Origin: an uncultured Clostridia bacterium
GTDB taxonomy: Bacteria; Bacillota; Clostridia; Lutisporales; Lutisporaceae
DNA length: 25,119 bases
Direction: 5' to 3'
Assembly: GCA_937976095.1 (NCBI GenBank)
Contig: CALJSV010000153.1
Location: forward strand, 1 to 25,119
Position numbers and translations under genes: made by a program. Shown piece after piece: positions 6,614 through 24,968 of the stretch (within the stretch, counting starts at the first letter, position 1; every line of letters starts with the position of its first letter). The notes under the pieces are model-generated. The model ran no database searches, was not told the origin of the DNA, and saw only the letters and a list, made by a program, of their open reading frames with translations.

Positions 6614-7819
6614 TTATCCCCTCAATATTTCGATTACAGAATTCTTAACTGACACATATAAGTTAGCTATTGAAGGCTCAGATATTAACGAGCCGATTAG
6701 ACAAATGTTACTTGAACTTTGTCTTTCAATTATGTCCTGATAAAAGCTTTGCGTCAGGTTATGCTCCTTTAAATGAGGGAATATGTACCACTGCTTTGCT
6801 GTTATCAAATGCTCAACATGGATTCCGGATCTTTCTATATCATCAGTTATTCCATTGATCAGATCCTTTTGGACGTTCCCATATGCATAGGCCACAAGAA
6901 TGGTACGGTTATTGTGCTTAAAGGTATGGAAAAACTGTATTTTACCTTTTTGCCATAAATGAGCTTTATAATAGGTTGTTACTAGGTTTTTGCTGCTTAC
7001 TTCATATGCACAAGTGATGAATGGATTGGTATCAATTTTCTTCATTAGTTGATTGCATAAATCGTCTTTGATGACATCTCTCGGCAGCTTGGTTGTAATA
7101 AGCACCTTGTCATAATAGTCGGAACCAAAGGCGGTTTCGACTTTCACTTTGTTACCCATAACTTCAATATTGTGAACCTCAATAGAATATCTTATATCCG
7201 ATATGTTTTGACTAAGCTTATTTATTAACTCTGAGGTGCCTTTGTTAATGAACAAAAGCTTATCTCCTCGTATAAAAGACAATATGGTGTCCACATTAAA
7301 GACCTTAAGTGCGTAGAAGGCCTGAGTACTATATATATCTCCAAAGCCATAGGAGGAAAGGTGAGGTGCAATAACCTGGTTGATGATATTCAGGTCATGC
7401 TTTCTGAGAAAGTCATACAACGGAACCAGTAAGTCTTCATGAATATATCCGTAATTAACAGTATTAATTGATGCAGAATATTTCCCCAAAAGCATCTTAA
7501 GCTTAGCCAGCTCATCCATTAGTAAAACCACATCTTCCCTTGACATATGCTCTACATTATTAAAATTTTCATCAACAAAGTTTCTGTAGGTAAATCTCTC
7601 AGTATAGTCAAGTCGCAGCTCTATCAGCAGCTCTTTAATCTGCTTTGTAAATGCGAAAACTGTGCCAAGCTCAGCAAATAAGTCTTTACTTGCAAATGTT
7701 CTGCAATGACCCCCTATATGCTCCTGCTTTTCATAAACAGTGACGTCTATTCCTTCTTTTTCTAGTAAGTATGCCGCGAGCATACCACTGAAACCCGCTC
7801 CAATAATAGCTATTCTCAT
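6614..7819 (-). CDS. FAD/NAD(P)-binding oxidoreductase (amine-oxidase/protoporphyrinogen-oxidase-like superfamily)
   Basis: N-terminal Rossmann motif IAIIGAGFSGMLAAYLLEKEGIDVTVYEKQEHIGGHC. The start is set at MRIAIIGAG, preceded by RBS AAAGGGGATTTT. Confidence 0.65.
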   Translation of the reverse strand: MRIAIIGAGFSGMLAAYLLEKEGIDVTVYEKQEHIGGHCRTFASKDLFAELGTVFAFTKQIKELLIELRLDYTERFTYRNFVDENFNNVEHMSREDVVLLMDELAKLKMLLGKYSASINTVNYGYIHEDLLVPLYDFLRKHDLNIINQVIAPHLSSYGFGDIYSTQAFYALKVFNVDTILSFIRGDKLLFINKGTSELINKLSQNISDIRYSIEVHNIEVMGNKVKVETAFGSDYYDKVLITTKLPRDVIKDDLCNQLMKKIDTNPFITCAYEVSSKNLVTTYYKAHLWQKGKIQFFHTFKHNNRTILVAYAYGNVQKDLINGITDDIERSGIHVEHLITAKQWYIFPHLKEHNLTQSFYQDIIERQSSSNICLIGSLISEPSIANLYVSVKNSVIEILRG

Positions 7820-7829
7820 AAAATCCCCT

Positions 7830-8816
7830 TTAATACTGCCTGTCAATATATGCCCATAAGGGCAGGATAAGGCGGCTATTTGTTAATTTATTATGATACT
7901 CAATAGGAGAACATACCTCATCCTCAAATGCTGTCTTATGGCTTATGTTGTATGCTCTAATGTACTTCTGAAGCTGAATTCTCAGATCATTGAAGGAAAT
8001 ACCTTCATGGATCAGAGGTATTAGAAATGATAGGCAGCCTTCTGTATATTGCTTTCTTAATTCGTCAATCATCGCCATGCTATCATCTGATTTAAGTATA
8101 TGTATTTTTACATCAAGTCCGTTATCTTGAGCTATTTTGCTAACTCTTGAGTTCAAGCTGCTTCTGGTTTGCTTAATGATTTTTAAATCATGGAAAAAGC
8201 AGAAGTACTTAACGTGCAAGCTTAGTGTTTGAGCCACCGGTATAGCTACAGCAGTTAATAAATCTTCAAAATTCTCAAATGATATATCGTGATACAGCCT
8301 TGTGCATGCTATTCTGCTTCTAAAATCAAATAAGGTATACTCATAAATGTTGCCTTGGGTTTGAAAATCCCCATAATAAGTTATCCAAAATATCCAGCAT
8401 TCTCCGCTGTTTAGTTCACTTATAGGAGGGAGCTGACTTGGGGGATTGTTTTCCTTCTTTTTTATAAATCTGACCCTGCTTTCTTTATTGGTAAGGTGGT
8501 GTCTTTTCATAACATTAAAGACAGCTGACTCACTTATGTTATATCCGATTTCTTCCAAAAGATATTTAATAGCCTTTGGTCCATAGCTGGGATATGCTTT
8601 CAATAGACTTAGCAATGCGTTTTCTATCTCATTGCTTGTTTTATTGACAGGAACAAAATCCTTCTTAACATCATCAAGACCTTCGATCCCCTGAGTTTTA
8701 TATCTTTTTAACCAACGATAATAAAGTGTCCTGGAAATGTTATATTTTCGGCAAGTTGTGCTTATGCCGTTTATTTGTCCTTCACTTATAATATTAAATT
8801 TAAGGTTTTTGTGCAT
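7830..8816 (-). CDS. Transposase-like protein: N-terminal HTH plus degenerate rve/integrase-core domain (IS481/IS3-like), probably domesticated
   Basis: The HTH segment is ISRTLYYRWLKRYKTQGIEGL. The core segment GECWIFWITYYG...LFDFRSRIACTRLY...YHDISFENF matches the integrase-core pattern, but the first catalytic Asp is replaced (W-I-T-Y rather than T-D-I-T). No inverted repeats are visible, and the gene abuts the oxidoreductase start. The start codon is uncertain (8816, 8828 or 8840). Confidence 0.45.
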   Translation of the reverse strand: MHKNLKFNIISEGQINGISTTCRKYNISRTLYYRWLKRYKTQGIEGLDDVKKDFVPVNKTSNEIENALLSLLKAYPSYGPKAIKYLLEEIGYNISESAVFNVMKRHHLTNKESRVRFIKKKENNPPSQLPPISELNSGECWIFWITYYGDFQTQGNIYEYTLFDFRSRIACTRLYHDISFENFEDLLTAVAIPVAQTLSLHVKYFCFFHDLKIIKQTRSSLNSRVSKIAQDNGLDVKIHILKSDDSMAMIDELRKQYTEGCLSFLIPLIHEGISFNDLRIQLQKYIRAYNISHKTAFEDEVCSPIEYHNKLTNSRLILPLWAYIDRQY

Positions 8817-8956
8817 AACAACCACCATTTTTACAATCAATTATTTTTGAGTGAGTAATATACTTTTTATTTTACCATCCCCAATGGTCTCCTTCAACAG
8901 TTAAAACTGTACCAAAGTATTTTAAATACTAATATCGAGCGCTGCTTGTAAAAAAA

Positions 8957-9065
8957 GTTACTTTGGATTTCTGTTTACAATCACTCTAGAGAAAGGTGTC
9001 AAGAATAGTCTGATTATTATGAGGCTACAGTATATTATGATATGTAAACACATAGGTAAAGTAAC
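8957..9065. repeat. Bipartite inverted repeat GTTACTTT-N7-TGTTTACA / TGTAAACA-N7-AAAGTAAC
   Basis: The left arm is at 8957-8979. The right arm at 9043-9065 is its reverse complement. The two 8-mers are separated by 7 nt in both arms. The pair sits upstream of the hypB promoter. Confidence 0.4.
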
Positions 9066-9094
9066 AACTCGAGAAAAACGCGTAAAATTCTTAA

Positions 9095-9123
9095 TTGTTG
9101 CGGCTTTTTTATCTTGCTATAAT
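9095..9123 (+). promoter_or_regulatory. Promoter for the hypB operon (TTGTTG-17-TGcTATAAT, extended -10)
   Basis: TATAAT lies at 9118-9123, preceded by TG. A -35-like TTGTTG lies 17 bp upstream. A second TATAAT is at 9130. Confidence 0.4.
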
Positions 9124-9153
9124 CAAAGTATAATCAGTTGCTGGAGGTCGAGT

Positions 9154-9819
9154 ATGAGTGAGTTAAAAGTTTTCACAATCAAAAAAAATATTCATGAAAA
9201 TAACGCTAAAGTTGCTCAAGCCACAAGAGAAGAATTAAAAAAGCAAGGTACATATCTTATTAACATCATGTCATCACCAGGTAGTGGAAAGACATCGACA
9301 CTTGTTAGTACAATCAAAGCATTAAAGGATGAGATTAAGATCGGTGTTATGGAAGCTGATATTGACTCGGATGTTGATGCAATAGCTGTTCAGACGGCAG
9401 GGGCAAAAGCAGTTCAAATGCACACAGGTGGGATGTGCCATTTAGACGCTACCATGACAAAGCAGGGTATTGATGAGTTAGGTGTAGAAGAATTGGACCT
9501 GGTTTTTCTGGAGAATATCGGAAACCTGATATGCCCGGCAGGCTATGATGTAGGAGCAATGAAAAATATAGCTATTTTAAGTGTTCCGGAAGGCGACGAT
9601 AAGCCTTTAAAATACCCTAAGATATTCGGGAAAGTAGATGTGCTGATCGTCAACAAAATCGATGTAATAGAGCATTTCGATTTTAGAATGGATTTGCTTG
9701 AGGAAAGAGTAAGAAAGCTGAACAAGGATATTACTATCTTTCCCATATCAGCAAAAACCGGTGAAGGTATGGATGAATGGTTAAATTGGATTAGAAAAGA
9801 AATAAAAACAAGGGGGTAG
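9154..9819 (+). CDS. hypB: Ni-metallochaperone GTPase HypB (G3E family)
   Basis: P-loop SSPGSGKTST. CH metal site GGMCHLDA. ENIGNLICPA and NKIDV motifs. RBS GGAGG lies 6 nt before ATG 9154. The longer ORF from 9019 would run through its own promoter. Confidence 0.8.
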   Translation: MSELKVFTIKKNIHENNAKVAQATREELKKQGTYLINIMSSPGSGKTSTLVSTIKALKDEIKIGVMEADIDSDVDAIAVQTAGAKAVQMHTGGMCHLDATMTKQGIDELGVEELDLVFLENIGNLICPAGYDVGAMKNIAILSVPEGDDKPLKYPKIFGKVDVLIVNKIDVIEHFDFRMDLLEERVRKLNKDITIFPISAKTGEGMDEWLNWIRKEIKTRG

Positions 9820-9824
9820 AAACA

Positions 9825-12599
9825 ATGCCCAAGAAACAAGAAAAAACAAACTTTAACAAGTCAAAGAGGTTTAACTTTGCTCTAAACTGGGCGGATGTAG
9901 ATGGTAGAGAGTATAGGCAAGAGATAGTGGACCTTGCAAACAAGATCGGAAGGACAAAAGCAGGCTCAAGCAGGGAGGCAATTCCCTTTGGTCCTGAATA
10001 TTATGCCCTTGCACCGATACTCAACGAATACCAAGCAAAAACAGCGATGCACTTGGAATTCCGTAAAAAGCTCAATGCAGAGGATGTTGCAAAAGCATCA
10101 GGAGAGCCATACGAAAAGGTAAAGGAAGCTCTGGACTATATTGCCTGGGCTGGAGTTGCCTTTGTAAATACAATAGCTGGAGTAGACGTGTATTGGCAGG
10201 ATATCTTTGTACCAGGCCACTTGGAAATGATAAATAACAACAAAGAGCTGGTTGCCAAGCACCCGGAGGTAGCAGAAGCCTTCTACTATTTTGGAAGCAA
10301 AAGAGGACCTATGGCTGCAGGCATAATGCCTATTGGTGCAGGACCAATGCGCGTACTGCCTATTGAAAGATCCATTGATGGAAACTCAAGAAAAGCTTCC
10401 TATGAAGAGCTGTCAAAGCACTTAAACGAAGCAAAAGTGTTCTCCGTATCTGATTGTTCCTGCAGGACTTCTCGTGAAGAAATGGGAGAAGGCTGCGGAC
10501 ACTTAAAGGAAAATATGTGTATTCAATTAGACCATGCTGCTGAATACTACATAAAAACAGGACGTGGAAGGAAGATCACTCGAGAAGAAGCCTTTGAGAT
10601 CATTAAAAGAGCAGAGGACAATGGCTTGATGCACTCTATTCCGAACTTGGATGAGCCGGGGCACACCCATGCTATTTGCAATTGCTGCGGATGTGGCTGT
10701 TATGCCATGAGATTAGCCAATGAATATGTAAATAATGATATTGTCAGGTCTAATTATAAGTCGGTTGTTGATGAATCTAAATGTGTAGCTTGCGGCGAGT
10801 GTGTGGATGTTTGTCCTACAAATGCATTAAGACTTGGACAGAAGCTATGCTCCAAAGCGCCTATTGATGAAAAAATGGTTAAGGCTACACCGAGAAATAA
10901 TGAGTGGAAGGAAGACAAATGGAACAGCGATTATAGAGTTAACAGGAAAAATACACTGGACTCAGGTACTGCTCCTTGTATTACCAACTGTCCCGCACAC
11001 ATTCCGGTACAGGGCTATATTAAGCTGGCTTCACAGGGTAAATATACAGAAGCCTTGGAATTGATTAAGAAGCATAATCCACTTCCAGCAGTATGCGGAC
11101 GTGTTTGCCCAAGACTGTGTGAGGAAGACTGTACACGTGGTGATATTGATGAAGCTGTAGCCGTTGATGATATCAAAAAGTTTATTGCAGAGCAGGATAT
11201 AAATAAGGATATTCGCTACATACCGAAGAAAAGACATGACTACAGTGACAAGAAGGTTGCCATTATCGGCGGAGGTCCTTCAGGGCTGACATGTGCTTAT
11301 GACTTAGCTATAGATGGTTATGATGTAACAGTATTTGAAAAAGAGAAAATGCTAGGGGGCATGCTGACATTTGGAATACCATCCTACAGGCTGGAAAAGG
11401 ATGTTATAGAAGCGGAAATAGCTATACTCAAGGAAATGGGAGTTAAGTTTGAGACCGGTGTGGAAGTCGGAAAGGATGTATCGATCCAAGGACTTAGAGA
11501 TAAAGGCTTTAATGCTTTCTATGTCGCTATCGGTGCGCAATCAGGAAGAAAGCTGGGATTAGAAGGGGAAACCGCTGCTGAAGTAATAAGCGGTGTAGAC
11601 TTCCTTCGAACAGTTAATTTGTCTGAACCAACCAACGTAAAGGGTAAAGTGATTGTCATTGGTGGAGGTAACGTTGCAATTGATGTTGCAAGATCTGCCG
11701 TAAGACTGGAAGGCGTAGTGCAAACAGATATTTTCTGTCTGGAAGCAAGAGAGACTATGCCTGCGCACCCTGAAGAAATAGAAGAGGCCTTGGCGGAAGA
11801 TGTGAATGTCAACACTTCATGGGGTCCGACGAGGATTATAGCAGAAAACGGTAAAGTAACAGGAGTAGAATTCAAGCGTTGCCTTTCTGTTTTTGATGCA
11901 GATGGCAGATTCAATCCAAAGTTTGATGAAGCAGATAAAAGGATTGTTGAATGTGATTATGTCTTGTTATCCGTAGGGCAAACCTACGACTATGGAAAGC
12001 TTCTGGAAGGTGAAGGTGTAAGGTTAACCAATAGGAATACAATTGAAGTGGATCCTGTGACTCTTCAAAGTTCAAAAGCAGACATTTTTGCCGGCGGAGA
12101 TGTTGCAAGTGGTCCAAAATTTGCCATAGATGCCATAGCGGCTGGTAAAGAAGCAGCAATTTCCATACACAGATTTGTACAAAGAGGTCAGTCCTTGGTA
12201 TTCGGTAGAGATACACACTCCTACAAAATGCTTGATAAGGAAAACCTGGGTGAAATACAAGGCTATGATGGTACAGTAAGACAAGGGACAAATCATGTGG
12301 ATGGCAAGGTATCAAAAACAACCTTTAAAGACTTAAGAGGTATCTTAACAGAAGAACAGATTAAGAAGGAAACAGCAAGATGTCTCGGCTGTGGTGCCAC
12401 TAAAACAGATGAGTACCTATGTGTTGGATGCGGAGCATGCACACTCAAGTGTAAATTTGAAGCAATAAAGCTTGAGAGGGTTAATGATGCAAAAGGTTAC
12501 AGAATTGAAGACCTGCCAAAGGTGGTAATTAAAAAAGCATTAGCCAGAAAAGTCAAAATAATGGCAAACAAAATAAATCCTTTTACAAAAGCAAGATAG
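9825..12599 (+). CDS. Multi-cluster Fe-S flavoprotein with three parts: an unknown Cys/His-rich N-terminal domain, a 4Fe-4S ferredoxin motif, and a GltD/NfnB/SudA-like FAD/NAD(P)H oxidoreductase with a C-terminal Cys cluster
   Basis: CVACGECVDVCP (ferredoxin). CITNCPAH...PAVCGRVCPRLCEEDC (GltD-type N-terminal clusters). VAIIGGGPSGLTCAY and VIVIGGGNVAIDVA (two dinucleotide folds). C-terminal CLGCGATKTDEYLCVGCGACTLKC. The N-terminal ~330 aa contain SDCSCRTSREEMGEGCGH and HTHAICNCCGCGC. Translationally coupled to hypB (5-bp gap, RBS GGGGG). Confidence 0.7.
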   Translation: MPKKQEKTNFNKSKRFNFALNWADVDGREYRQEIVDLANKIGRTKAGSSREAIPFGPEYYALAPILNEYQAKTAMHLEFRKKLNAEDVAKASGEPYEKVKEALDYIAWAGVAFVNTIAGVDVYWQDIFVPGHLEMINNNKELVAKHPEVAEAFYYFGSKRGPMAAGIMPIGAGPMRVLPIERSIDGNSRKASYEELSKHLNEAKVFSVSDCSCRTSREEMGEGCGHLKENMCIQLDHAAEYYIKTGRGRKITREEAFEIIKRAEDNGLMHSIPNLDEPGHTHAICNCCGCGCYAMRLANEYVNNDIVRSNYKSVVDESKCVACGECVDVCPTNALRLGQKLCSKAPIDEKMVKATPRNNEWKEDKWNSDYRVNRKNTLDSGTAPCITNCPAHIPVQGYIKLASQGKYTEALELIKKHNPLPAVCGRVCPRLCEEDCTRGDIDEAVAVDDIKKFIAEQDINKDIRYIPKKRHDYSDKKVAIIGGGPSGLTCAYDLAIDGYDVTVFEKEKMLGGMLTFGIPSYRLEKDVIEAEIAILKEMGVKFETGVEVGKDVSIQGLRDKGFNAFYVAIGAQSGRKLGLEGETAAEVISGVDFLRTVNLSEPTNVKGKVIVIGGGNVAIDVARSAVRLEGVVQTDIFCLEARETMPAHPEEIEEALAEDVNVNTSWGPTRIIAENGKVTGVEFKRCLSVFDADGRFNPKFDEADKRIVECDYVLLSVGQTYDYGKLLEGEGVRLTNRNTIEVDPVTLQSSKADIFAGGDVASGPKFAIDAIAAGKEAAISIHRFVQRGQSLVFGRDTHSYKMLDKENLGEIQGYDGTVRQGTNHVDGKVSKTTFKDLRGILTEEQIKKETARCLGCGATKTDEYLCVGCGACTLKCKFEAIKLERVNDAKGYRIEDLPKVVIKKALARKVKIMANKINPFTKAR

Positions 12600-12630
12600 A
12601 TTATATCTGTAGAAATTGAGGTATAGTGTA

Positions 12631-12972
12631 ATGCACGAACTAGGTATCGTTTATGAAGTCATCAAAATAGTCGATGGATTTGCAAAGGAAAATAATCTGA
12701 CAACAGTAGATAAAATTGTATTGGAGGTTGGACAATTATCTCAGGCAATTCCAAGATTTATTGAAGAGTGTTATCCTGCGGCAGTTAGTGAAACCGCATA
12801 TGAAAACACTAAGCTGGAGATCATTGTGCTTCCAGCCAAAGCAAAATGCAAGGCTTGCAATGAAGTATATAATATTATAGAGCACAGGAAAATCTGTCCT
12901 GAATGCCAGGGAGATGAATATAAATTAATATCAGGACAGGAATTCAATATTAAAGAAATTGTAGCATTTTAG
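12631..12972 (+). CDS. hypA: Ni-metallochaperone HypA
   Basis: N-terminal MHE (Ni site) followed by LGIVYEVIKIV. Zinc-ribbon CKACNEV...CPECQG. RBS GAGGT lies 8 nt before ATG 12631. Confidence 0.8.
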   Translation: MHELGIVYEVIKIVDGFAKENNLTTVDKIVLEVGQLSQAIPRFIEECYPAAVSETAYENTKLEIIVLPAKAKCKACNEVYNIIEHRKICPECQGDEYKLISGQEFNIKEIVAF

Positions 12973-13014: not shown

Positions 13015-13980
13015 ATGGGGGTTTTTGAAGGTTTTTCAATGGGGAGTATTGTTGCATTTGTTTTATTTCTAGCCGTAATGCTTGGAGTGAACGAAGTTAC
13101 AAGAAGATCAAAATCGTTATCTATATTGGTGTACTGTGTCCTGCCTGTGGTATTGGCGGGGTTGGTATTCTCAGGAGTACTGGGGTCACCTACGGGAAAA
13201 ACATGGTTTGCTTGGGTTAAGGTAGTATCTGCATTGGCAGGTGTTTATGGCTTTATGCTGATCAGATTCACTAAGCTGGGTAAAAGTAGATTTGCAGCTA
13301 TATTCCCTGTAACTATCTTAGCATTGAACATTGCTGAAGCGGTTTATAGAGAATTTCAAGTATTTGCAACCTATAAGACATTAGAAGTAGATCCAGGCGG
13401 AGTCCTTGTCCTTGGTGGAACTTGGAATATTTTGAATGCAATAGCAGGAATTCTATGTATAGTAACCCTGACAGGATTTATTGGAATCAAGGTATCGAAA
13501 GACAAGTCAAGGGATATGGTATGGCCTGATATGACATGGATGTATATTATTGGTTATACATTATGGAACTTTGCATATGTTTACAATTGTATTTCAACAA
13601 GATCCATGTATGCCGGATTTGGCATCCTATCAGCAGCGCTTATTGCAGAATTTGTATTTAAAAGAGGGGTATGGCTTCAGCATAGAGCTCAGATTTTATC
13701 CTTTTATGCCATGTTTTCTCTGTCCGTAGATTTTCAGCAGAGCAAGTATTTCCAAGTACTGCCTACTTATAGCGAAGGTGCACTGATGACCATAAGCACT
13801 ATATCATTCTTGTTTAATGTAGGCGTGTTTGCTTATATGATTTACACAATCATAAAATACAAAAAGAATCCATTAAAGGAAGAGATTTATACTCATACTA
13901 ATTACTATAAGAAAAGCTTGATAGCCAATAATCTAGAGACGAAATCACAGGGGAAGCCCCTGAAAAGCTATACAGCATAG
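13015..13980 (+). CDS. Polytopic integral membrane protein of unknown function (last gene of the hypB operon)
   Basis: About 8 hydrophobic segments. RBS CAGGAGG. A strong terminator follows immediately downstream. Confidence 0.5.
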   Translation: MGVFEGFSMGSIVAFVLFLAVMLGVNEVTRRSKSLSILVYCVLPVVLAGLVFSGVLGSPTGKTWFAWVKVVSALAGVYGFMLIRFTKLGKSRFAAIFPVTILALNIAEAVYREFQVFATYKTLEVDPGGVLVLGGTWNILNAIAGILCIVTLTGFIGIKVSKDKSRDMVWPDMTWMYIIGYTLWNFAYVYNCISTRSMYAGFGILSAALIAEFVFKRGVWLQHRAQILSFYAMFSLSVDFQQSKYFQVLPTYSEGALMTISTISFLFNVGVFAYMIYTIIKYKKNPLKEEIYTHTNYYKKSLIANNLETKSQGKPLKSYTA

Positions 13981-17239: not shown

Positions 17240-17878
17240 ATGAACGAGCTTTTTACTACAGCTGTTACGGGAGTAAATATTATTCCTACCACTTTATTGG
17301 GCTTGGTTATTTTGTATTGGGTGTTTGTAATAGTTGGTGCTCTTGATTTGTCTTCCTTGGATATTGATATAGATGGGGATGCGGATTTGGACTCTATATC
17401 AGGTCCGTTGCATAGCATAATGCTGCTATTCAAAATAGGTCAACTTCCTATAGGGTTTGTTATCAGTGTTATCATTTTAGTATTTTGGGTATTATCAATG
17501 GCTATGCACTTACTGCCCTTTAAGACAGGGGGAATCCTTGCCGGCATTATCATGCTTCCCAGCTTCGTTTTAAGTATATTTATTACAAAAATTATCTTAA
17601 GCCCCTTTGAGAAAGCATTTAGGAGTAGGGTCAAGTCTGAGCTTGAGGAAGAAATCATTGAGGGCAGACGGGGAGTACTTCTATGCGACCTTACCTTTGG
17701 TCGTTTGGGGCAGGTTGAGATAAAAAGGAATGGCAGCCCAATAATTATCAATGTAAAGATGATAAAGGAAGAAGAATTACAAAAGGGAAATGAAGTTCTG
17801 ATCCTAAAAAAGGATGAAGAAAAAGACTTTTACTTAATTACTAAACTTGAAGGAGTGATAAACAAATGGCTTTCTTAA
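17240..17878 (+). CDS. NfeD-like membrane protein (YuaF/YqiJ family): TM helices plus C-terminal OB-fold
   Basis: Three or four TM segments. An acidic loop DIDIDGDADLDS. A C-terminal beta-rich segment EGRRGVLLCDLTFGRLGQVEIKRNGSPIIINVKMI typical of the NfeD OB-fold. It sits immediately upstream of a flotillin gene and overlaps it by 13 nt, as in yuaF-floT / yqiJ-yqiK. Confidence 0.7.
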   Translation: MNELFTTAVTGVNIIPTTLLGLVILYWVFVIVGALDLSSLDIDIDGDADLDSISGPLHSIMLLFKIGQLPIGFVISVIILVFWVLSMAMHLLPFKTGGILAGIIMLPSFVLSIFITKIILSPFEKAFRSRVKSELEEEIIEGRRGVLLCDLTFGRLGQVEIKRNGSPIIINVKMIKEEELQKGNEVLILKKDEEKDFYLITKLEGVINKWLS

Positions 17879-20001
17879 CACAAGTACCTTTCTTAACACA
17901 GGTAACATTAGTTACTGCAGTAGCTTTGGTTGTAATCGTTTTTGGACTAATTGCTTTAATATCCAAGTTTTACAAAAAAGTAGAACAGAGTAAGGTAATA
18001 GTACGAAATGGTGTTGGAGGACAGATCGTCTCATTTGGAGGAATGCTGGTTATACCTATTTTACATAGGGCAGAAATAATGGATGTTTCGGTAAAAAGAG
18101 TTGAAATATCAAGAGAGGGTAAGGATGGGCTGATCTGTAAGGATAACATGAGGGCAGACATAAGAGTTGCTTTCTTTGTCAGGGTTAACCAAACTAGGGA
18201 GGATGTGCTGAAGGTTGCTCAATCCCTGGGATGTCAAAAGGCTTCAGATCCAGGAACACTAATGGAATTCTTTGATGCAAAGTTTTCAGAAGCATTAAAA
18301 ACTGTAGGCAAGAAATTTGATTTCGTACAGCTATATACAGAAAGAGAAAAATTCAAAAGTGAAATTCTTCAGATTATAGGTACTGACTTAAATGGATATA
18401 TTCTTGAAGATGCAGCCATTGATTATTTGGAGCAGACTGATATAAATAAGCTAAACAGCAATAATATTCTTGATGCCGAGGGTATCAAAAAAATTACGGA
18501 GCTAACCTCTCATCAGTTGATTCTTGCAAATCAGATTGAGCGAAACAAGGAAAAAACTATTAAGCAGCAGGATGTGGCAGCTAGGGAGGCTATTCTTGAG
18601 CTTGAGAAACAGAATCAAGAAGCAGAAGCCCGTCAGCAAAGAGAAATAGCTATTATTAGAGCCAGAGAAAAAGCAGAGACTGATAAAGTCTCACAGGAAG
18701 AGCGCTTAAAGGCGGAGATGGCTCGCATTAAGACGGATGAGGATATTGCTATTGCAGAAGAAAACAAGCAAAGACAGATTGTTGTAGCAACAAAGTCTAA
18801 AGAAAGTACAGAAGTAGTAGAGACAGAAAGAGTTGATAAGAAGAGACTTTTGGAGAAGGTAGACAAAGAAAAGCTGGTAGCTCTTGCGGAGATCGATAAA
18901 GAGAAAACCCTTGAGGAAGAGAAGAAAAACATTCAGACAGTTATTCGTGAGCGTGTGGCTGTTGAAAAAGATGTAGTAATTGAAGAAGAGAAAATAAAAG
19001 ATACAAAGGTAATTGCTGAAGCTGAACGTCAAAAGCAAGCAGCTTTAAAAAAGGCTCAAGAGCAAGCAGAGTCTAATTTGATCGTAGAGGTTCAAAATGC
19101 CGAAGCGGCAAAGCAAGTAGCCGAAAGAGCTGCACAGCAAAGAGTTATTGAAGCTGAAGCTAAGCTGCAATCTTCAGAAAAGGAAGCTGAGGCTATCAAA
19201 ATACTTGCTGATGCTCAGATAGTGCAGGCAGCCACAAGTGGATTGGCAGAAGCCCGCGTTATAGAGACAAAGGCGTCAGCTATGGAAAAGGAAGGCGGCT
19301 CGAAGGCAAGAGTAATGGAGGCAACAGCGGAGGCAGAAGCTAAAGCAATCGAGATAAAAGCACTGGCAGAAGCAAAGGGCGAAGAGGCAAAGGTTATTGT
19401 AAGAGAAAAATCCGGAACTGTTGAGGTTGATATTATGTCTAAAAAATATCATGCCGAAGCAGAAGGGATTGCGAAAAAAGCTACCAGCATGAAGGCACTG
19501 GATGAAGCAGGCAGAGGTCACGAGGAGTTTAAGCTTAAGCTTGATAAAGAGAAGGAAATTGAGCTTGCTCAAATAAATATTCAAAAGGATATAGCAGAAG
19601 CACAAGCAGCAGTTATAAGTGAAGCCTTGAAGTCAGCATCTATTGATATCGTTGGCGGAGAGACAATGTTCTTTGACAAAATCGTTGGTGCTATTACCCA
19701 AGGTAAGTCCGTTGACCGTGTTGTTAAAAACAGCGAGGTGCTAAGTGATATTAAGAACACTTTTATCACAGGTGATGGAGATTATTTTAGATCTCAGTTA
19801 GAGAGACTGACTTCAAAATTCAATCTGACTTCAGAGGACTTAAAAAATCTATCAATTTCAGCTGCTATTCACAAAGCAATGAAGTTTGCGGATTCATCCG
19901 AGAAGACAGCGCTTATGAAGCTACTGGAAACTGCAGAAAAGGCGGGCTTAGCAAATTTGCCGGCTAACCTTCTTGGAAAACAAATTACTAGCAATGAGTA
20001 A
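17866..20001 (+). CDS. floT: Flotillin-like SPFH/band-7 protein (FloT/YqiK family), unusually long
   Basis: N-terminal TM helix followed by KKVEQSKVIVRNGVGG. SPFH domain. Roughly 300 aa of E/A/K-rich coiled coil. 711 aa in total. Confidence 0.8.
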   Translation: MAFLTQVPFLTQVTLVTAVALVVIVFGLIALISKFYKKVEQSKVIVRNGVGGQIVSFGGMLVIPILHRAEIMDVSVKRVEISREGKDGLICKDNMRADIRVAFFVRVNQTREDVLKVAQSLGCQKASDPGTLMEFFDAKFSEALKTVGKKFDFVQLYTEREKFKSEILQIIGTDLNGYILEDAAIDYLEQTDINKLNSNNILDAEGIKKITELTSHQLILANQIERNKEKTIKQQDVAAREAILELEKQNQEAEARQQREIAIIRAREKAETDKVSQEERLKAEMARIKTDEDIAIAEENKQRQIVVATKSKESTEVVETERVDKKRLLEKVDKEKLVALAEIDKEKTLEEEKKNIQTVIRERVAVEKDVVIEEEKIKDTKVIAEAERQKQAALKKAQEQAESNLIVEVQNAEAAKQVAERAAQQRVIEAEAKLQSSEKEAEAIKILADAQIVQAATSGLAEARVIETKASAMEKEGGSKARVMEATAEAEAKAIEIKALAEAKGEEAKVIVREKSGTVEVDIMSKKYHAEAEGIAKKATSMKALDEAGRGHEEFKLKLDKEKEIELAQINIQKDIAEAQAAVISEALKSASIDIVGGETMFFDKIVGAITQGKSVDRVVKNSEVLSDIKNTFITGDGDYFRSQLERLTSKFNLTSEDLKNLSISAAIHKAMKFADSSEKTALMKLLETAEKAGLANLPANLLGKQITSNE

Positions 20002-20018
20002 ATGAGGTGTAGTGAGCT

Positions 20019-23000
20019 GTGGGTGAACTAAAAACAACTGAACAAGGCGGACAAAATCCAGCCGAAGGTATTGAAAATGGCACATATGAATTAATAAAGA
20101 GCAGACTAGGCAAAATAGGCAGCGACCTGAAGGAAAAACTCGATAAATTAAATATTTCCAGAAGAAGCGTGTTTGGTTCAATTGAGACAACCCTGCTCGG
20201 CAGTGAAAAGATTATTACTGAAAACAATTGCGTCCCACGAGACATGGCTCCCGTGGGAGCTTTGTTTATCTTCGGTTACAACGTATATATTGGACTGAAA
20301 TCCTCTGTTGAGCTTTCTGACGTCTTTTCCATCTATGAATACAAGGGTGGATCATTCCACAAACAATCCTTAGAGCTTATTAACAATGATCAATTTTTAA
20401 ACGACTTCAAAGAATTATATAAGTACTACAAGAATACTTTCTTTGCAAAGTTTACAAATGTAGGACCTTATCTTTATATGGTATTTCAGACCGGGAAGAG
20501 TCCCTTTGATATAAAAGCCTTCAAATGGCTTATGAAGGATGGCAAGCTTTCCTACGTAGACAACAGGAGTGAGCATGAGGTAAGACTGAAGGTTCAAAGT
20601 GAGCTTGATTGGGTTAGAGCTAAGAGAGAGGATCACTGTGAGGGCAGGCATCCGCATATATCAATTAGAGATAAGGTCTTTGTAGAAACCTTAGGTGGAG
20701 ACCTTACTATAAAGGTAGAGAATAACACGGATACCGGTAAAGGCATTTACTCTGAGACTGTGGAAGATATGGATCAGACCCTTGATGATGCTGAAATATA
20801 TTATGCGTCAGTAGGAAATCTAATACTTTTGAAAATTCTTCCTTACAGGGAAAAAGAGTACCGCTACATAATATTTAATGAAAAGCTGCAGATGGTTGTT
20901 CGAGTAGATGCTATAAAGGATTCTTGCGTGCTGTTGCCGGATAACCATGGACTTATATTCCCTAAGGGCTATTATTTGCAAAGCGGTGAACATAAGCTTT
21001 TTGAAGTGCCCAGTGAAGGCTTTGTTTTTGTTCAGCGTATAGAAGCTCCTAATGGAGAGGATTTTCAGTACATTTTCTACAATATGGAAACGGGATTATA
21101 CCTGATATATACATACAATATAATTGAGCAATCATTGGAAATACCGATAATCTGTGGTGGCTACTCACATTTTAACAATGGTGAGATGGTGATTTTTAAG
21201 GGGGAAGACGAGCCTCGTAAGAACCATACCCTGCAAATATGGCAGACTCCATATGTGGGAGAAGGCTACACGGTTGAGAATAAAAGCGACTCAGTTCTGT
21301 ATAAAATAGGCAATAAAGAAGTTGTTCATTGTATGGCAGACTGCAAGGTAGTATATAACCTTATTCAAAAAGGGGAGAGCTATACAAGCATATACCTGGA
21401 CATCGTAAAAGACACTGAAAGAATTATGGACTCTTATTATTGGCTGGACAAAGCTGAGGCCTTTAACCTGAAAGCAGTGCTAAAAAGCGTAAAAGAGGCT
21501 GCTACTTCAGCAGTTGCTGAGTTTGAAAAGGTAACAAGAATAAGGTGTTCTACAGAGAAGCAAATCAAAGAAGTAGATGAAAAGGCTCAAGTGCTGCTGA
21601 AGAATGCTGAGTACGGTACATTTGACAGTATTCAAGGTTATGTGCAGATTCTGGCAGATTTAAGGTCTTTAAGAGGAGAGATAGCTTCTCTCAAGGCCTT
21701 GCGCTACACTAATTTGCCGCTGGTTGAGTCACTGGAAGAGAAGGTCAAAGAAAAAAATGAAAGGCTAACCCAAAGATGTACTGAGTTTCTTCTGGTTCCT
21801 GAAGGACTCAGGCCTTACTCACAGCAGGTTGACAATCAGCAGAGCCAGATTCCTTCTATTACTAAGACCTCTTCGGGAAAAGAGCTGGAGAATGAGATGG
21901 CAAAATCCTCTCAGGACTTAGAGCTGCTAATTGATATTGTAAGCAATTTTAATATAGAAGACCCGACAAAAACAACAGAGATAATTGAAAATATATCTGC
22001 CATATTTTCTCTCCTAAACCAGGCTAAAGCAAAGCTGAAAAACCGTATGGTAGAGCTTTCCGAAAAAGAGGGAATTGCACAGTTTCACTCCCAGATGAAG
22101 CTGCTAGACCAAGCTGCTGTTAATTATCTTGAAGTTGCAGATGGCATGGAAAAATGCGAATTATATCTGAACAAGATAATGGTACAGATTGAGGAGCTGG
22201 AAGGCAGATTTGCAGATTTTGAAGACTTCATTGTAAAGCTTAATGAAAAGCGGGAAGAGCTTTATAATGCTTTTGAAGCAAAAAAACAGATGATTTTAGA
22301 GAAACGGAACAAAAAGCTCACTGCTCTTTTTGGCACATCTGAGAGGATACTAACTGGAATTATCAGCCGACTTCAGGGCTTTAATACTATTAATGAGATT
22401 AACGGCTACCTTGCATCAGATATCATGATCGATAAGGTAAGAGATATCATTGATCAGCTTAAGGCATTGGGAGATAGTGTGAAGGCTGATGAAATTGAAG
22501 GAAGGCTAAAGATAATAAAAGAGGAGGCTATCCGTCAGCTAAAAGACAAACAGGAGTTATTTGTTCATGGGAAAAACGTAATTAAGCTCGGCAGGCATTA
22601 CTTTTCCTATAATACTCAGCAGCTTGAGCTGTCAATGGTGCAAAAGGACGGAGAACTATATTTTCATATTACTGGAACTGATTTCTGGGAAAAAGTATCA
22701 TCAGATAGTATGGCTAAGTTCCACTACCTGTGGGACCAGGAAGTACTGTCAGAATCTAAGTATATTTATCGTGCCGAGTACCTTGCATATAAGATATTTG
22801 AGGCAGCTTTAAGTAAGGAGGTAGTATCCCTTGATACGCTTTATTCATACTCTGAGGAACAGCTATTGGAATACATCCGCAAGTTTATGGAGCCACGTTA
22901 TCAAGAGGGATATACAAAAGGTGTCCATGACGCAGATTGTCACAAACTACTAAAAGCGCTTTTGAATTTGCACATGAATATTGACCTGTTAACCTACAGT

Positions 23001-24968
23001 CCAAAATCCAGAGCCATTGCAAAGCTATACTGGCAGTGCATAGCCGGCTCAGAAATAAAGGATAAGTTTAGCAGACGCTTAAGGGAATTGGCAAAAATAA
23101 GCATGTACTTCAAGACAGAGCCTGGATTGGGGGATTATATCCCTACCATCGAAACAGAAATGAACAGTGCTTTCAATAATTACAAATTCGTTGATAAAGG
23201 CTTTGTTTATGAAGCTTCAGAATATCTATGCAGGGAGCTAATGCGTGGCAGCTCATTTATAGCAAGTCTTGAAGCAGATGAAGCCAAAAGCAAGTTTTTG
23301 CAACATCTTAAAGCCAATAAAGCAGAAAGCCTTTTTGCTGAGTCTCTTAAGGCCTTTAATGAAGACTTGGAAGGAGCATATTATCTTGTACGGGAGTGGC
23401 TTACTGCGTTCTTTAAAGAAACAGGCTTAAATGAGGGCATTGACGTAATGGATGAAGTCATTACTTTGTTAATTGTTGATAGTAGCAAAGTCGACATCAG
23501 CAGACAAAAAGTTATTAACATGAAAACAAGGGTGATGATCACCGAATTAAGTGGAAATCATCCAAGCATAAAAGGAGGAGAGTATACTCTTTCATATACA
23601 GAGTTCATGAAAAAACTAAAGGAATATGATAAAACTGTTGTATGTGATTTCATTGAATTTCAAGCTTTGAAGAAGGAGCTTTCACAGAGATTTAGAGATG
23701 AACTCCGCTTGGAGGAGTTTAAGCCTAATGTGTTATCCTCCTTTGTAAGAAATCGATTAATAGATAAGGTGTATCTGCCGTTGATTGGTGATAACCTTGC
23801 AAAACAAATAGGTACAGCAGGCGAAGATAAACGAACAGACCTGATGGGCATGCTTCTATTGATATCTCCACCAGGCTATGGAAAGACAACCCTTGTAGAG
23901 TATATTGCAAATCGTCTTGGCATTTTTCTTATCAAGATCAACGGACCTGCTATTGGAAACGATGTAACTTCACTGGATCCTGCTATGGCTCCAAATGCAG
24001 GTGCAAGAGAAGAGCTGAGAAAGCTCAACCTAGCCTTTAAAATGGGCAACAATGTTATGATTTATCTGGATGATATACAGCACTGCAGCCCGGAGTTTCT
24101 GCAAAAGTTTATTCCTCTGTGTGACGGACAAAGGAAAATTGAAGGTGTTTATAATGGGATGGGGCAATCCTATGACCTTAGAGGGAAGAAGCTGGCTGTT
24201 GTCATGGCAGGGAATCCATACACAGAGAGCGGTGAAAAGTTCCAGATTCCTGACATGCTTGCAAATAGAGCAGATGTCTATAATCTTGGAGACATGCTCC
24301 ACGAAAACGAAAATGCATTTAAGCTGAGCTATATCGAGAATTCTTTGACCTCTAACCCTATTCTTAATAAGCTTGCATCCAGAAGTCAGAAAGATATTTA
24401 CACTATGATTGACATTGCAGAGAATGGGGAAAGAGAGGGCTTGGATTTTGAAAGCCAATACTCTGTTGAAGAGATAAATGAGTTTGTGGCTGTTATTCAA
24501 AAGCTTATGAAGGTGCGCGATATAGTTCTAAAGATCAATATGGAATATATCTATTCTGCTGCACAAGCTGATGAATACAGAAAAGAGCCACCCTTTAAGC
24601 TTCAAGGCTCCTACAGGAATATGAACAAAATATCAGAAAGAATAGTTCCATTAATGAATGATGAAGAGCTGATGCAAATGGTTGCGAACGCCTATGAAAA
24701 TGACTCGCAAACCTTAACACAGGGAGCAGAAGGCAATATGCTGAAATGGAAGGATATTGCAGGACATATCAATGAACAAGAAGCCTTGAGGTGGAAGGAA
24801 ATAAGAGATATTTTCTTAAAAAACAAGCTGGCGAGGGATGATAGCAAAATAGGTCAGGCAATTATTAAGCTTGGTGATTTAAATGAACAGCTAGGGGTTA
24901 TGACAAGCGTACTGACAAAAGGTGTAGAGAGGATGTGTGGTCACACCCCAGCTCCGCCAAATAAGTAA
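20019..24968 (+). CDS. Giant (1649 aa) protein: unknown N-terminal ~480-aa domain, long coiled-coil/helical middle region, C-terminal single AAA+ ATPase of the MoxR/McrB (helix-2-insert) clade
   Basis: GTG start with RBS GAGGTG, 17 bp after the flotillin stop. Walker A LISPPGYGKTT. Walker-B region MIYLDDIQHCSPEFLQ (compare MoxR hhhhDEINRA). AVVMAGNPYTESGEKFQIPDMLANRADV matches the MoxR ATQNP...LPEAQLDRF segment. Confidence 0.7.
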   Translation: MGELKTTEQGGQNPAEGIENGTYELIKSRLGKIGSDLKEKLDKLNISRRSVFGSIETTLLGSEKIITENNCVPRDMAPVGALFIFGYNVYIGLKSSVELSDVFSIYEYKGGSFHKQSLELINNDQFLNDFKELYKYYKNTFFAKFTNVGPYLYMVFQTGKSPFDIKAFKWLMKDGKLSYVDNRSEHEVRLKVQSELDWVRAKREDHCEGRHPHISIRDKVFVETLGGDLTIKVENNTDTGKGIYSETVEDMDQTLDDAEIYYASVGNLILLKILPYREKEYRYIIFNEKLQMVVRVDAIKDSCVLLPDNHGLIFPKGYYLQSGEHKLFEVPSEGFVFVQRIEAPNGEDFQYIFYNMETGLYLIYTYNIIEQSLEIPIICGGYSHFNNGEMVIFKGEDEPRKNHTLQIWQTPYVGEGYTVENKSDSVLYKIGNKEVVHCMADCKVVYNLIQKGESYTSIYLDIVKDTERIMDSYYWLDKAEAFNLKAVLKSVKEAATSAVAEFEKVTRIRCSTEKQIKEVDEKAQVLLKNAEYGTFDSIQGYVQILADLRSLRGEIASLKALRYTNLPLVESLEEKVKEKNERLTQRCTEFLLVPEGLRPYSQQVDNQQSQIPSITKTSSGKELENEMAKSSQDLELLIDIVSNFNIEDPTKTTEIIENISAIFSLLNQAKAKLKNRMVELSEKEGIAQFHSQMKLLDQAAVNYLEVADGMEKCELYLNKIMVQIEELEGRFADFEDFIVKLNEKREELYNAFEAKKQMILEKRNKKLTALFGTSERILTGIISRLQGFNTINEINGYLASDIMIDKVRDIIDQLKALGDSVKADEIEGRLKIIKEEAIRQLKDKQELFVHGKNVIKLGRHYFSYNTQQLELSMVQKDGELYFHITGTDFWEKVSSDSMAKFHYLWDQEVLSESKYIYRAEYLAYKIFEAALSKEVVSLDTLYSYSEEQLLEYIRKFMEPRYQEGYTKGVHDADCHKLLKALLNLHMNIDLLTYSPKSRAIAKLYWQCIAGSEIKDKFSRRLRELAKISMYFKTEPGLGDYIPTIETEMNSAFNNYKFVDKGFVYEASEYLCRELMRGSSFIASLEADEAKSKFLQHLKANKAESLFAESLKAFNEDLEGAYYLVREWLTAFFKETGLNEGIDVMDEVITLLIVDSSKVDISRQKVINMKTRVMITELSGNHPSIKGGEYTLSYTEFMKKLKEYDKTVVCDFIEFQALKKELSQRFRDELRLEEFKPNVLSSFVRNRLIDKVYLPLIGDNLAKQIGTAGEDKRTDLMGMLLLISPPGYGKTTLVEYIANRLGIFLIKINGPAIGNDVTSLDPAMAPNAGAREELRKLNLAFKMGNNVMIYLDDIQHCSPEFLQKFIPLCDGQRKIEGVYNGMGQSYDLRGKKLAVVMAGNPYTESGEKFQIPDMLANRADVYNLGDMLHENENAFKLSYIENSLTSNPILNKLASRSQKDIYTMIDIAENGEREGLDFESQYSVEEINEFVAVIQKLMKVRDIVLKINMEYIYSAAQADEYRKEPPFKLQGSYRNMNKISERIVPLMNDEELMQMVANAYENDSQTLTQGAEGNMLKWKDIAGHINEQEALRWKEIRDIFLKNKLARDDSKIGQAIIKLGDLNEQLGVMTSVLTKGVERMCGHTPAPPNK

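Follow-up and report, generated by a model that had tools for sequence, protein, structure and literature searches.

Gene cluster and domain architecture

The window, by which we mean the whole 25,119-nucleotide stretch of DNA analyzed, carries a gene cluster in which a large Fe-S flavoprotein is encoded between the nickel-chaperone genes hypB and hypA, with a membrane-protein gene downstream and two minus-strand genes upstream:

6614 to 7846, minus strand: FAD protein, isomerase homologue (phmmer against PDB 2B9W, E 6.8e-24, aa 10–389 versus 7–404)
7830 to 8840, minus strand: HTH protein with an IS481-transposase-like N-terminal region (Pfam HTH_28/HTH_32)
9154 to 9819, plus strand: hypB, Ni-metallochaperone GTPase (Pfam cobW; TIGR00073 hypB, 245 bits versus a cut-off of 121)
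9825 to 12599, plus strand: Fe-S flavoprotein of 924 aa, assigned to the IsrA family (‘clade 9’), starting 5 nt past the hypB stop
12631 to 12972, plus strand: hypA, Ni metallochaperone (Pfam HypA, E 3e-30, aligned from residue 6)
13015 to 13980, plus strand: DUF5692 membrane protein (Pfam PF18948, E 3e-106), often the fourth gene of the cluster

The likely start of hypB is the ATG at 9154, located 7 nt past a GGAGG, as opposed to the listed ORF start at 9019. For hypA, translation probably begins at the ATG that yields an MHE N-terminus, 31 nt downstream of the reductase ORF, whereas the listed ORF starts at the TTG at 12616; its NCBIfam score (80 bits) is slightly below the 88-bit cut-off. 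Promoter and terminator scans gave nothing better than shuffles, and PADLOC returned no match for the large downstream ORFs.

The flavoprotein is built from the following parts, all on the plus strand:

9825 to 9917: N-terminal extension, aa 1–31, present in the closest relatives only and modeled with low confidence
9918 to 10319: helical subdomain, aa 32–165, with a winged-helix-like core at ~aa 57–125
10320 to 10763: Cys-rich α/β subdomain, aa 166–313, proposed metallocluster/active-site module
10764 to 10832: Fer4, aa 314–336 (Pfam), the CxxCxxCxxxCP first half of a ferredoxin-type motif (C320/C323/C326/C330)
10962 to 11207: Fer4_20, aa 380–461 (Pfam PF14691, E 1e-22), a GltD/DPD-type Fe-S domain
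11250 to 12146: Pyr_redox_2, aa 476–774 (Pfam PF07992, E 1e-27), FAD/NAD(P)-binding
12381 to 12500: C-terminal CxxC plus CxxCxxCxxxC, aa 853–892 (Pfam Fer4_9/Fer4_7 at 866–892)

In the extension, pLDDT is below 50 for aa 1–11, and distant loci align only from about aa 31. The Fer4_20 domain is expected to carry two [4Fe-4S] clusters, and we infer that aa 853–892 combine the second ferredoxin half with the permuted first Cys pair of the Fer4_20 module. The pairing of the ferredoxin halves at aa 314–336 and 866–892 is supported by the contiguous dicluster ferredoxin of the short forms, and the flavoprotein module appears to be inserted within a ferredoxin domain in this IsrA-type ORF. Four canonical [4Fe-4S] clusters account for 16 Cys, to which the 9 Cys and 2 His of the Cys-rich part are surplus.

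Judged by architecture, printed Cys positions and neighbors, and not by direct identity to IsrA, ORF 9825–12599 belongs to the IsrA family (‘clade 9’ of Kronen 2023). IsrA itself (VUZ27132.1) comes from Acetobacterium wieringae ISORED-2 and is a putative isoprene reductase (Kronen et al. 2023, PMC10134865). The two proteins share a length of ~900 aa, an unannotated N-terminal region of ~270–310 aa, a pair of identically spaced CxC motifs, the domain order Fer4, Fer4_20, Pyr_redox_2 and C-terminal Fer4, and hypA/hypB/DUF5692 neighbors. The positions printed for IsrA (C180/182, C254/256 and Fer4 from 289; PMC10134865) correspond here to C211/213, C285/287 and Fer4 Cys from 320; the offset is +31 throughout, which equals the length of the clade-specific N-terminal extension. 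The Acetobacterium carbinolicum homologue is 85% identical over the N-domain and 76% over the rest. As in the window, ‘cluster III’ of Acetobacterium in the IsrA paper is accompanied by an HTH gene and a gene for an FAD oxidoreductase, whereas the isr operon has a second hypA and a 350-aa ferredoxin-like gene, both missing here. Several NCBIfam assignments were rejected on score: the PRK12771 equivalog (458 versus a cut-off of 516), the gltD equivalogs, with which domains are shared (TIGR01317, 213 versus 448; TIGR01318, 275 versus 483), and YgfK (TIGR03315, putative selenate reductase subunit; 298 bits versus 835), of which only model positions 414–888 match, over aa 353–858, leaving the N-terminal ~410 aa of YgfK unmatched.

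The N-terminal domain and its ligand motifs

The first ~313 residues are a family-specific module composed of a winged-helix-like part and a Cys-rich α/β part. There is no Pfam match at E<=1 in aa 1–313 apart from a chance-level TrmB wHTH, and no NCBIfam or PDB sequence match in aa 1–320; single-sequence and profile searches of aa 1–320 against Pfam, NCBIfam and PDB returned a marginal winged-helix signal and nothing else. Because no domain is matched in aa 1–313, the unassigned region that the first-pass annotation had drawn at 9825–10780 is real and is delimited here to nt 9825–10763. Structurally, aa ~57–125 superpose on MarR/ArsR-like wHTH domains, and no PDB structure matched the fold of the Cys-rich α/β part (aa ~166–313). 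The N-terminal ~165 aa, formerly included in a Cys/His-rich domain, are a winged-helix-like/helical module and not a ligand cluster. The candidate ligands lie further along the plus strand:

10449 to 10520: motif 1, SDCSCRTSREEMGEGCGHLKENMC, aa 209–232; core C211, C213 (with R214) and C232; accessory C224 and H226
10632 to 10634: H270, His in 104/105 homologues
10662 to 10709: motif 2, HTHAICNCCGCGCYAM, aa 280–295; core C285, N286, C287 and C292; accessory C288 and C290

Both Cys clusters reported in the first pass are thus present, with coordinates that had each been 2 nt off in opposite directions: SDCSCRTSREEMGEGCGH (aa 209–226) occupies 10449–10502 and not 10447–10500, and the second cluster 10662–10709 and not 10664–10711. 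Their spacings, CxC-x10-CxH-x5-C and CxCCxCxC, differ from the CxxCxxCxxxCP or CCG spacing, and aa 209–232 and 280–295 give no Fer4 or CCG match at E<=1, which bears out the original reading of a non-ferredoxin, non-CCG arrangement.

Over 120 homologues, C211, C213, R214, C224, H226, C232, H270, C285, C287, C288, C290 and C292 are invariant or near-invariant, and the Cys/His pattern of the N-domain is accordingly not a product of chance. H270 is also invariant in further homologue alignments (A2–A4) and nearly so in the short forms. The eight Cys and three His singled out at first fare unequally: all eight Cys are conserved within the variant, as is H226, but H280 and H282 do not count as conserved: position 280 is His in a minority of homologues, Lys being commonest, and H282 is His in 70/101. 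That set was also incomplete, lacking C232, H270, R214 and N286, four residues that do not vary anywhere in the family.

When grouped by covariation across homologues, and not by distances, the ligands separate into a pan-family core (C211, C213, C232, C285, C287, C292 and H270, with R214 and N286) and an accessory four-ligand set that co-varies (C224, C288, C290 and H226 or C291). C224 is present in 50 of the 51 representatives having both C288 and C290, and His226 or Cys291 in 46/50; the C-x-H pattern occurs in none of the 28 representatives without C288 and C290.

Conservation of the gene neighborhood

The N-domain profile matches 2,739 clusters at 50% identity, and the closest loci (86–93%) belong to a Mycoplasmatota isolate genome and to Clostridia/Alkaliphilus MAGs; a search by exact sequence gave no record of the window protein. 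Across 80 related loci, HypB is encoded directly upstream in 76, HypA directly downstream in 71 and DUF5692 in 46; the co-occurrence given for DUF5692 in Kronen 2023 is 0.40 (PMC10134865). Genome loci with the accessory site (variant A) have HypA in 62/65 and HypB in 61/65, so the hypAB context pointed out in the first pass is strongly conserved. In the long form without the accessory site (variant B), which is common in human gut metagenomes, HypA or HypB is found in 22/23 loci, the metagenome loci being partly redundant. The hypB-X-hypA order is retained in more than 90% of long-form loci, in Firmicutes, Spirochaetes, Chloroflexi and Proteobacteria. The ‘short’ matches of the first homology search were rejected as stand-alone forms, being truncated or frameshifted long forms, and genuine ones were taken from the representative search. 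Three of these seven stand-alone N-domain plus ferredoxin genes lie inside hypB-X-hypA, beside an FrdA/SdhA-type flavoprotein; the other four have identical ligand motifs and no HypAB nearby, hence the motif by itself does not predict a Ni chaperone. Since the sandwich surrounds variant B and some stand-alone forms, it tracks the N-domain and not the flavoprotein module. The remaining genes of the window (alpha/beta hydrolases, radical SAM proteins, a DEAD-box helicase and others) are syntenic in 0/80 loci and were left out of the cluster.

The divergently transcribed FAD protein gene at 6614–7846 is kept in 36/80 loci, among them 24 of the 28 closest, and is almost absent from variant B loci, 80 of which gave three distant AmOx-like matches. 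Its full-length PDB match, 2B9W, was deposited under the title ‘putative aminooxidase’ and is, we take it, the P. acnes polyunsaturated fatty-acid isomerase (PAI). The adjoining HTH gene is present in 34/80 loci (NCBIfam IS481, 86 bits versus a 224-bit cut-off), and its 17-nt overlap with the isomerase-like gene, together with the conserved synteny, makes its product a likely regulator. Synteny with the fatty-acid isomerase homologue, a single gene covering those 36 loci, suggests conjugated fatty-acid dienes as the substrate in this subclade. Other Acetobacterium homologues are ~47–49% identical to IsrA and come from strains that do not reduce isoprene (PMC10134865), so that the substrate here is probably not isoprene.

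Proposed electron path and its alternatives

As a rule, GltD-like modules (GltD, NfnB, DPD) pass electrons on to a catalytic partner separate from themselves. We lean, with moderate confidence, toward the view that the ORF is an IsrA-family reductase in which the Cys6-His core is a HypAB-matured Ni-Fe-S site reducing conjugated C=C bonds; that nickel is bound, and catalysis takes place, in the N-domain is what we infer from synteny and conservation. FAD would be reduced by NAD(P)H, and electrons would travel through the two GltD-type clusters to the ferredoxin dicluster formed by the halves at aa 314–336 and 866–892, then to the accessory site, which is most probably one more [4Fe-4S] relay, and from there to the Cys6-His core. 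As a client of the flanking HypB and HypA, the core would carry a Ni-containing Fe-S center, for instance an A-cluster-like Ni bridged to a cubane, at which a non-activated conjugated C=C would be reduced. In this subclade, the neighboring isomerase homologue would probably supply the substrate by converting a polyunsaturated fatty acid into a conjugated diene.

Parts of this scheme have counterparts in known systems. The acetyl-CoA synthase (ACS) A-cluster (Ni-Ni-[4Fe-4S]) resembles the core in its Cys-rich Cys-x-Cys site, here CGCGC, in a possible Ni-bridged cubane and in its reliance on a dedicated NTPase Ni chaperone; however, there is no sequence or fold similarity, ACS is matured by AcsF/CooC-type proteins and not by HypA/HypB, and it forms C-C/C-S bonds where the proposed core would reduce an alkene. 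Double-cubane proteins ([8Fe-9S]) and the nitrogenase P-cluster likewise have six conserved Cys and reduce small unsaturated molecules such as acetylene, but they have another fold, depend on an ATP-driven reductase partner and do without Ni chaperones, whereas here an NAD(P)H/FAD module is fused. Residues ~355–890, with Fer4_20 and FAD/NAD(P) domains, are akin to GltD, NfnB, dihydropyrimidine dehydrogenase and PRK12771, although all NCBIfam scores are below cut-offs and the partner is here fused in cis. The large subunit of [NiFe]-hydrogenase, the canonical HypA/HypB client, shares the hypB/hypA flanks and an expected Cys-thiolate metal ligation, but no homology; no [NiFe]-hydrogenase subunit, the small one included, nor hypCDEF was found among the window ORFs of at least 100 aa, and the window, which is only part of the genome, also has no maturation protease. 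Ferredoxin:thioredoxin reductase (FTR) and the HdrB CCG domain also have non-ferredoxin Cys spacing including CxC (CPCR-like, ‘CSCR’ here), and such spacings build [4Fe-4S] clusters with substrate-facing chemistry; against this likeness, the ORF has no Pfam CCG or FTR match, and its spacing and fold are different.

It is possible, though clearly less probable than the nickel reading, that the N-domain holds Fe-S clusters only, either as an extra cubane and a Cys6 double-cubane/P-cluster-like center or as two to three ordinary clusters, serving as a catalytic or terminal electron-transfer site, with HypA/HypB attending to another Ni enzyme or delivering a different metal. Six-Cys ligation is used by double-cubane [8Fe-9S] and P-clusters (general knowledge; also raised in PMC10134865), CxC serves as a [4Fe-4S] motif in ferredoxin:thioredoxin reductase, and stand-alone forms with identical motifs are often without HypAB. 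What weighs against a nickel-free domain is the persistence of hypB-X-hypA across both ligand variants and around some short forms with another flavoprotein, the gap of just 5 nt between hypB and the ORF, and the genome content of the isr-carrying Acetobacterium, since ISORED-2 is devoid of [NiFe]-hydrogenase genes and its remaining Ni enzymes are served by maturases of their own (PMC10134865). In cells grown on isoprene, hypB and one of the two hypA genes are induced together with isrA, and the second HypA is not significantly more abundant (PMC10134865).

A reversed direction of electron flow, in which the N-domain is the input (a Ni-Fe-S site oxidizing H2, formate or another small donor, or simply an acceptor of ferredoxin electrons) and chemistry takes place at the flavin or a partner, is improbable. 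It would fit the short-form operons, whose fumarate-reductase-like flavoprotein could reduce C=C on its own, and the H2- or formate-driven reduction of isoprene in cultures. However, in every characterized relative known to us it is through the GltD-like module that NAD(P)H electrons enter. A hydrogenase-type Fe(CN)2CO site would require hypCDEF, which neither the window nor ISORED-2 carries, and Pfam and PDB fold comparison found no similarity of the N-domain ORF to hydrogenase, formate dehydrogenase or CODH. The winged helix raises the further idea of a non-catalytic, DNA-binding or regulatory module with a redox-sensing Fe-S cluster, which we regard as the least likely of all: the wHTH makes up only about 70–100 of 313 residues, the N-domain is always covalently joined to a ferredoxin, to which the long form adds a complete electron-input module, 9 Cys and 2 His are more than a sensor cluster needs, and the cluster already has a separate HTH gene.

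The first-pass annotation had presented the region as a possibly new catalytic domain with a candidate Ni or unusual-cluster site; the family and the Ni-site proposal were already in the literature, Kronen et al. 2023 having noted the unannotated ~270 aa, the Cys6 ‘cluster V’, the HypA/HypB/DUF5692 linkage and a possible Ni site (PMC10134865). The value of this window is modest for that reason. New in this analysis are the map of core versus accessory ligands, the division of the N-domain into winged-helix-like and Cys-rich α/β parts, the finding that HypAB follow the N-domain, and the substrate hypothesis for the subclade. The literature searched holds no metal analysis, spectroscopy or activity for any IsrA-family member, and no characterized homologue, CLA reductase gene or nickel-biohydrogenation link beyond Kronen 2023 and two 2026 preprints, in which IsrA is still termed putative.

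Should the Cys6-His site hold nickel, a new class would be added to the short list of nickel enzymes, and the proposed chemistry would account for the anaerobic hydrogenation of unactivated dienes (isoprene, butadiene) and possibly of conjugated fatty acids. The boldest version, in which the core is a new Ni enzyme class matured by HypA/HypB alone and is the sought conjugated-linoleic-acid reductase acting downstream of the isomerase homologue, is speculative and rather unlikely; if true, this subclade would supply the long-sought CLA reductase of bacterial biohydrogenation. Organisms of sediments, the rumen and the human gut carry IsrA-type family members.

Ligands and architecture of the N-terminal domain

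The motifs and Pfam domains of the window protein, an Fe-S flavoprotein, are arranged as follows:

9825..12599, + strand: window protein, 924 aa
10449-10502, + strand: motif 1, SDCSCRTSREEMGEGCGH, aa 209-226
10662-10709, + strand: motif 2, HTHAICNCCGCGCYAM, aa 280-295
aa 314-336: Fer4 (Pfam)
aa 380-461: Fer4_20 (Pfam)
aa 476-774: Pyr_redox_2 (Pfam)
aa 866-892: C-terminal Fer4 (Pfam)

Both motifs described in the first-pass annotation are present, although its coordinates were shifted by 2 nt in each case. Its view that the N-terminal region carries no recognised domain is borne out: residues 1-313 have no Pfam match, and residues 1-320 gave only chance-level matches to PDB sequences. NCBIfam matches are confined to the GltD-like part, all under curated cut-offs, with the PRK12771 equivalog (458 vs 516) and YgfK (298 vs 835) both missed.

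The Cys/His-rich N-domain is a real feature, far beyond chance. Across 120 homologues there is little or no variation at C211, C213, R214, C224, H226, C232, H270, C285, C287, C288, C290 and C292. Among the eight Cys and three His originally proposed, the Cys and H226 are conserved, but H280 and H282 are not; that list had also overlooked C232, H270, R214 and N286. Long forms occur as variant A, the window type (CxCR...GCGH...C and H...CNCCxCxC), and variant B (CxCR...G[C/T]G[D/E]...C and H...CNCxxxxC), which lacks C288, C290, H226 and, in some members, C224. Both variants keep C211, C213, R214, C232, H270, C285, N286, C287 and C292, the same residues that are invariant or nearly invariant in short forms (N-domain plus ferredoxin). 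C224 is found in 50 of 51 representatives having both C288 and C290, C-x-H in none of the 28 without them, and C291 is usually present where H226 is missing. Because the residues outside the shared core co-vary, we read the N-domain as a probable Cys6-His core site accompanied by an accessory four-ligand site, which would most simply be an extra [4Fe-4S] relay. The N-domain is a genuine, conserved, predicted metal-binding domain without structural assignment.

An N-domain profile matched 2,739 clusters at 50% identity (E<=1e-3), of which 1,552 reach E<=1e-10, in two architectures: a fusion of ~900 aa, and an N-domain with a complete dicluster ferredoxin of ~330-390 aa. In the long form, ferredoxin half-motifs at aa 314-336 and 866-892 enclose the GltD-like module, and we infer from this layout that the long form is a short form whose ferredoxin is interrupted by an inserted NAD(P)H/FAD/2x[4Fe-4S] module. 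Outside the N-domain lie 16 Cys (320, 323, 326, 330, 385, 389, 424, 428, 432, 436, 853, 856, 866, 869, 872 and 876), enough for four cubanes, so that the nine Cys and two His of the N-domain would exceed what those clusters need.

Linkage to hypA and hypB

The hypAB context first reported for the window protein was confirmed, with hypB on its 5' and hypA on its 3' side:

9154 (likely start, ATG), + strand: hypB, GGAGG 7 nt upstream, stop 5 nt before the 9825 ORF
12631 (likely start, ATG), + strand: hypA, giving an MHE N-terminus
13015-13980, + strand: DUF5692 polytopic membrane protein, directly after hypA

MHE is the Ni-binding N-terminus of HypA. Mechanical ORF calls start too early, since 9019-9153 (hypB) and 12616-12630 (hypA) precede the likely true ATGs. 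Neither hydrogenase structural genes nor hypCDEF occur within the window. The DUF5692 protein could be a substrate channel, anchor or transporter; His, Cys and Asp residues are scarce in it.

A synteny scan using one genome per species found at least 547 loci encoding relatives. The best 80 of these come from Clostridia, Erysipelotrichaceae, Spirochaetes, Chloroflexi, Bacteroidales, Vibrio and Shewanella; 76 of them have an adjacent HypB and 71 an adjacent HypA, and DUF5692 is present in 46, sometimes upstream of hypB. Of the 65 loci where the gene is complete and neither flank is shorter than 2.5 kb, 62 have HypA and 61 HypB. Four loci (L029, L034, L054 and L060) carry the ~900-aa reductase as two tandem paralogues with one common hypB/hypA set.

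Variant B loci were drawn from metagenomes, chiefly of human gut; of 23 complete ones, on partly redundant contigs, 22 have hypB upstream, hypA downstream or both. In the metagenome set (L081-L160), variant B with the motif CNCxVxVC is abundant in human-gut assemblies, with hypB and/or hypA alongside, and several of its contigs are high-GC and Coriobacteriia-like in appearance. Three of the seven stand-alone forms examined, from a Hydrogenedentota genome, an ENA metagenome contig and a Candidatus Abyssobacteria MAG, lie in a cobW/hypB - X - hypA order, with an FrdA/SdhA-like flavoprotein and then an SdhB-like Fe-S protein encoded next; the other four have identical ligand motifs and no HypAB at the locus:

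L161 6001-9930: stand-alone form in a cobW/hypB - X - hypA operon
L165 4289-8924: the same
L168 4275-8909: the same
L164 6001-8297: HypAB-less stand-alone form, then an NMO/FabK-like FMN protein (PF03060)
L167 5001-7315: the same

The HypAB-flanked arrangement appears to be a second version of the system, split and paired with another flavoprotein. In L165 and L168, an acyl-CoA dehydrogenase and an AAA/VWA(CoxE) pair precede the operon. Because variant B and three of the seven stand-alone forms retain HypA/HypB, the hypB-X-hypA sandwich tracks the N-domain and ferredoxin unit and neither the accessory site nor the GltD-like module. This builds on a published statement that the ferredoxin orthologous group showed no HypAB association (PMC10134865).

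Relation to IsrA and the nature of the core site

IsrA (901 aa) is the putative isoprene reductase of Acetobacterium wieringae ISORED-2, which lacks [NiFe]-hydrogenase genes (Kronen et al. 2023, PMC10134865). No domain is predicted in its first ~270 aa, and it was assigned four canonical [4Fe-4S] sites and a six-Cys 'cluster V' containing two CxC motifs, C180/182 and C254/256; neighbours of 988 homologues include HypA (0.73), HypB (0.56) and DUF5692 (0.40), and cluster V was proposed as a possible nickel site (PMC10134865). The window protein has C211/213, C285/287 and a Fer4 from 320, all offset by +31 from IsrA, which is the length of its clade-specific 31-aa N-terminal extension. By these landmarks we file it as a probable IsrA-family member. 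The first-pass interpretation of the N-domain was reasonable, and its nickel-site reading rediscovers that published hypothesis. Two 2026 preprints still call IsrA putative, and the literature searched held no biochemical characterisation of any family member; the window protein joins a family still uncharacterised.

To the domain content, conservation, covariation and synteny observed directly here, a working mechanism would add cluster types, nickel, the direction of electron flow and a substrate. NAD(P)H would reduce the FAD, and electrons would move from two GltD-type clusters to the split ferredoxin dicluster, on to the accessory site and into the core, where a Ni-containing Fe-S centre would reduce an unactivated conjugated C=C bond. 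The main rival, that the core is an Fe-only noncanonical cluster, seems to us less likely; its support is that a double cubane likewise accommodates six Cys. That the sandwich tracks the N-domain and ferredoxin unit is the strongest argument here, short of proof of nickel, that the Cys6-His core is a HypAB client.

Neighbouring genes and a substrate lead

Other genes in the window include:

6614-7846, - strand: FAD protein, 410 aa, divergently transcribed
7830-8840, - strand: HTH protein, 336 aa, HTH_28/HTH_32 domains, overlapping the 6614-7846 gene
17866-24968, + strand: SPFH/Band-7 protein, 711 aa, then a 1649-aa protein with DUF3686 (ATPase), DUF7902 and AAA domains

The two genes at 17866-24968 show no synteny with the reductase cluster, and PADLOC matched neither product. 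The FAD protein is a full-length homologue of PDB 2B9W (E 6.8e-24), which we take to be the P. acnes polyunsaturated fatty-acid (linoleate) isomerase. Its gene is syntenic in 36 of the best 80 loci, and this isomerase-like/HTH synteny includes 24 of the 28 closest relatives; the isomerase-like gene is nearly always missing from variant B loci (three distant AmOx-like matches among 80). An FAD oxidoreductase and an HTH gene also lie beside Acetobacterium homologues, with oleate hydratase in other strains (PMC10134865). The pairing of a diene-making isomerase homologue with a relative of a conjugated-diene reductase points to a hypothetical two-step biohydrogenation module, and this one syntenic gene suggests conjugated fatty-acid dienes as the substrate of the window's reductase. 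The HTH protein has sub-threshold similarity to IS481/IS3 transposases. Because its position, adjoining the isomerase-like gene, is kept in 34 of the best 80 loci (28-73% identity), it looks like a domesticated, transposase-derived regulator, not a mobile element.
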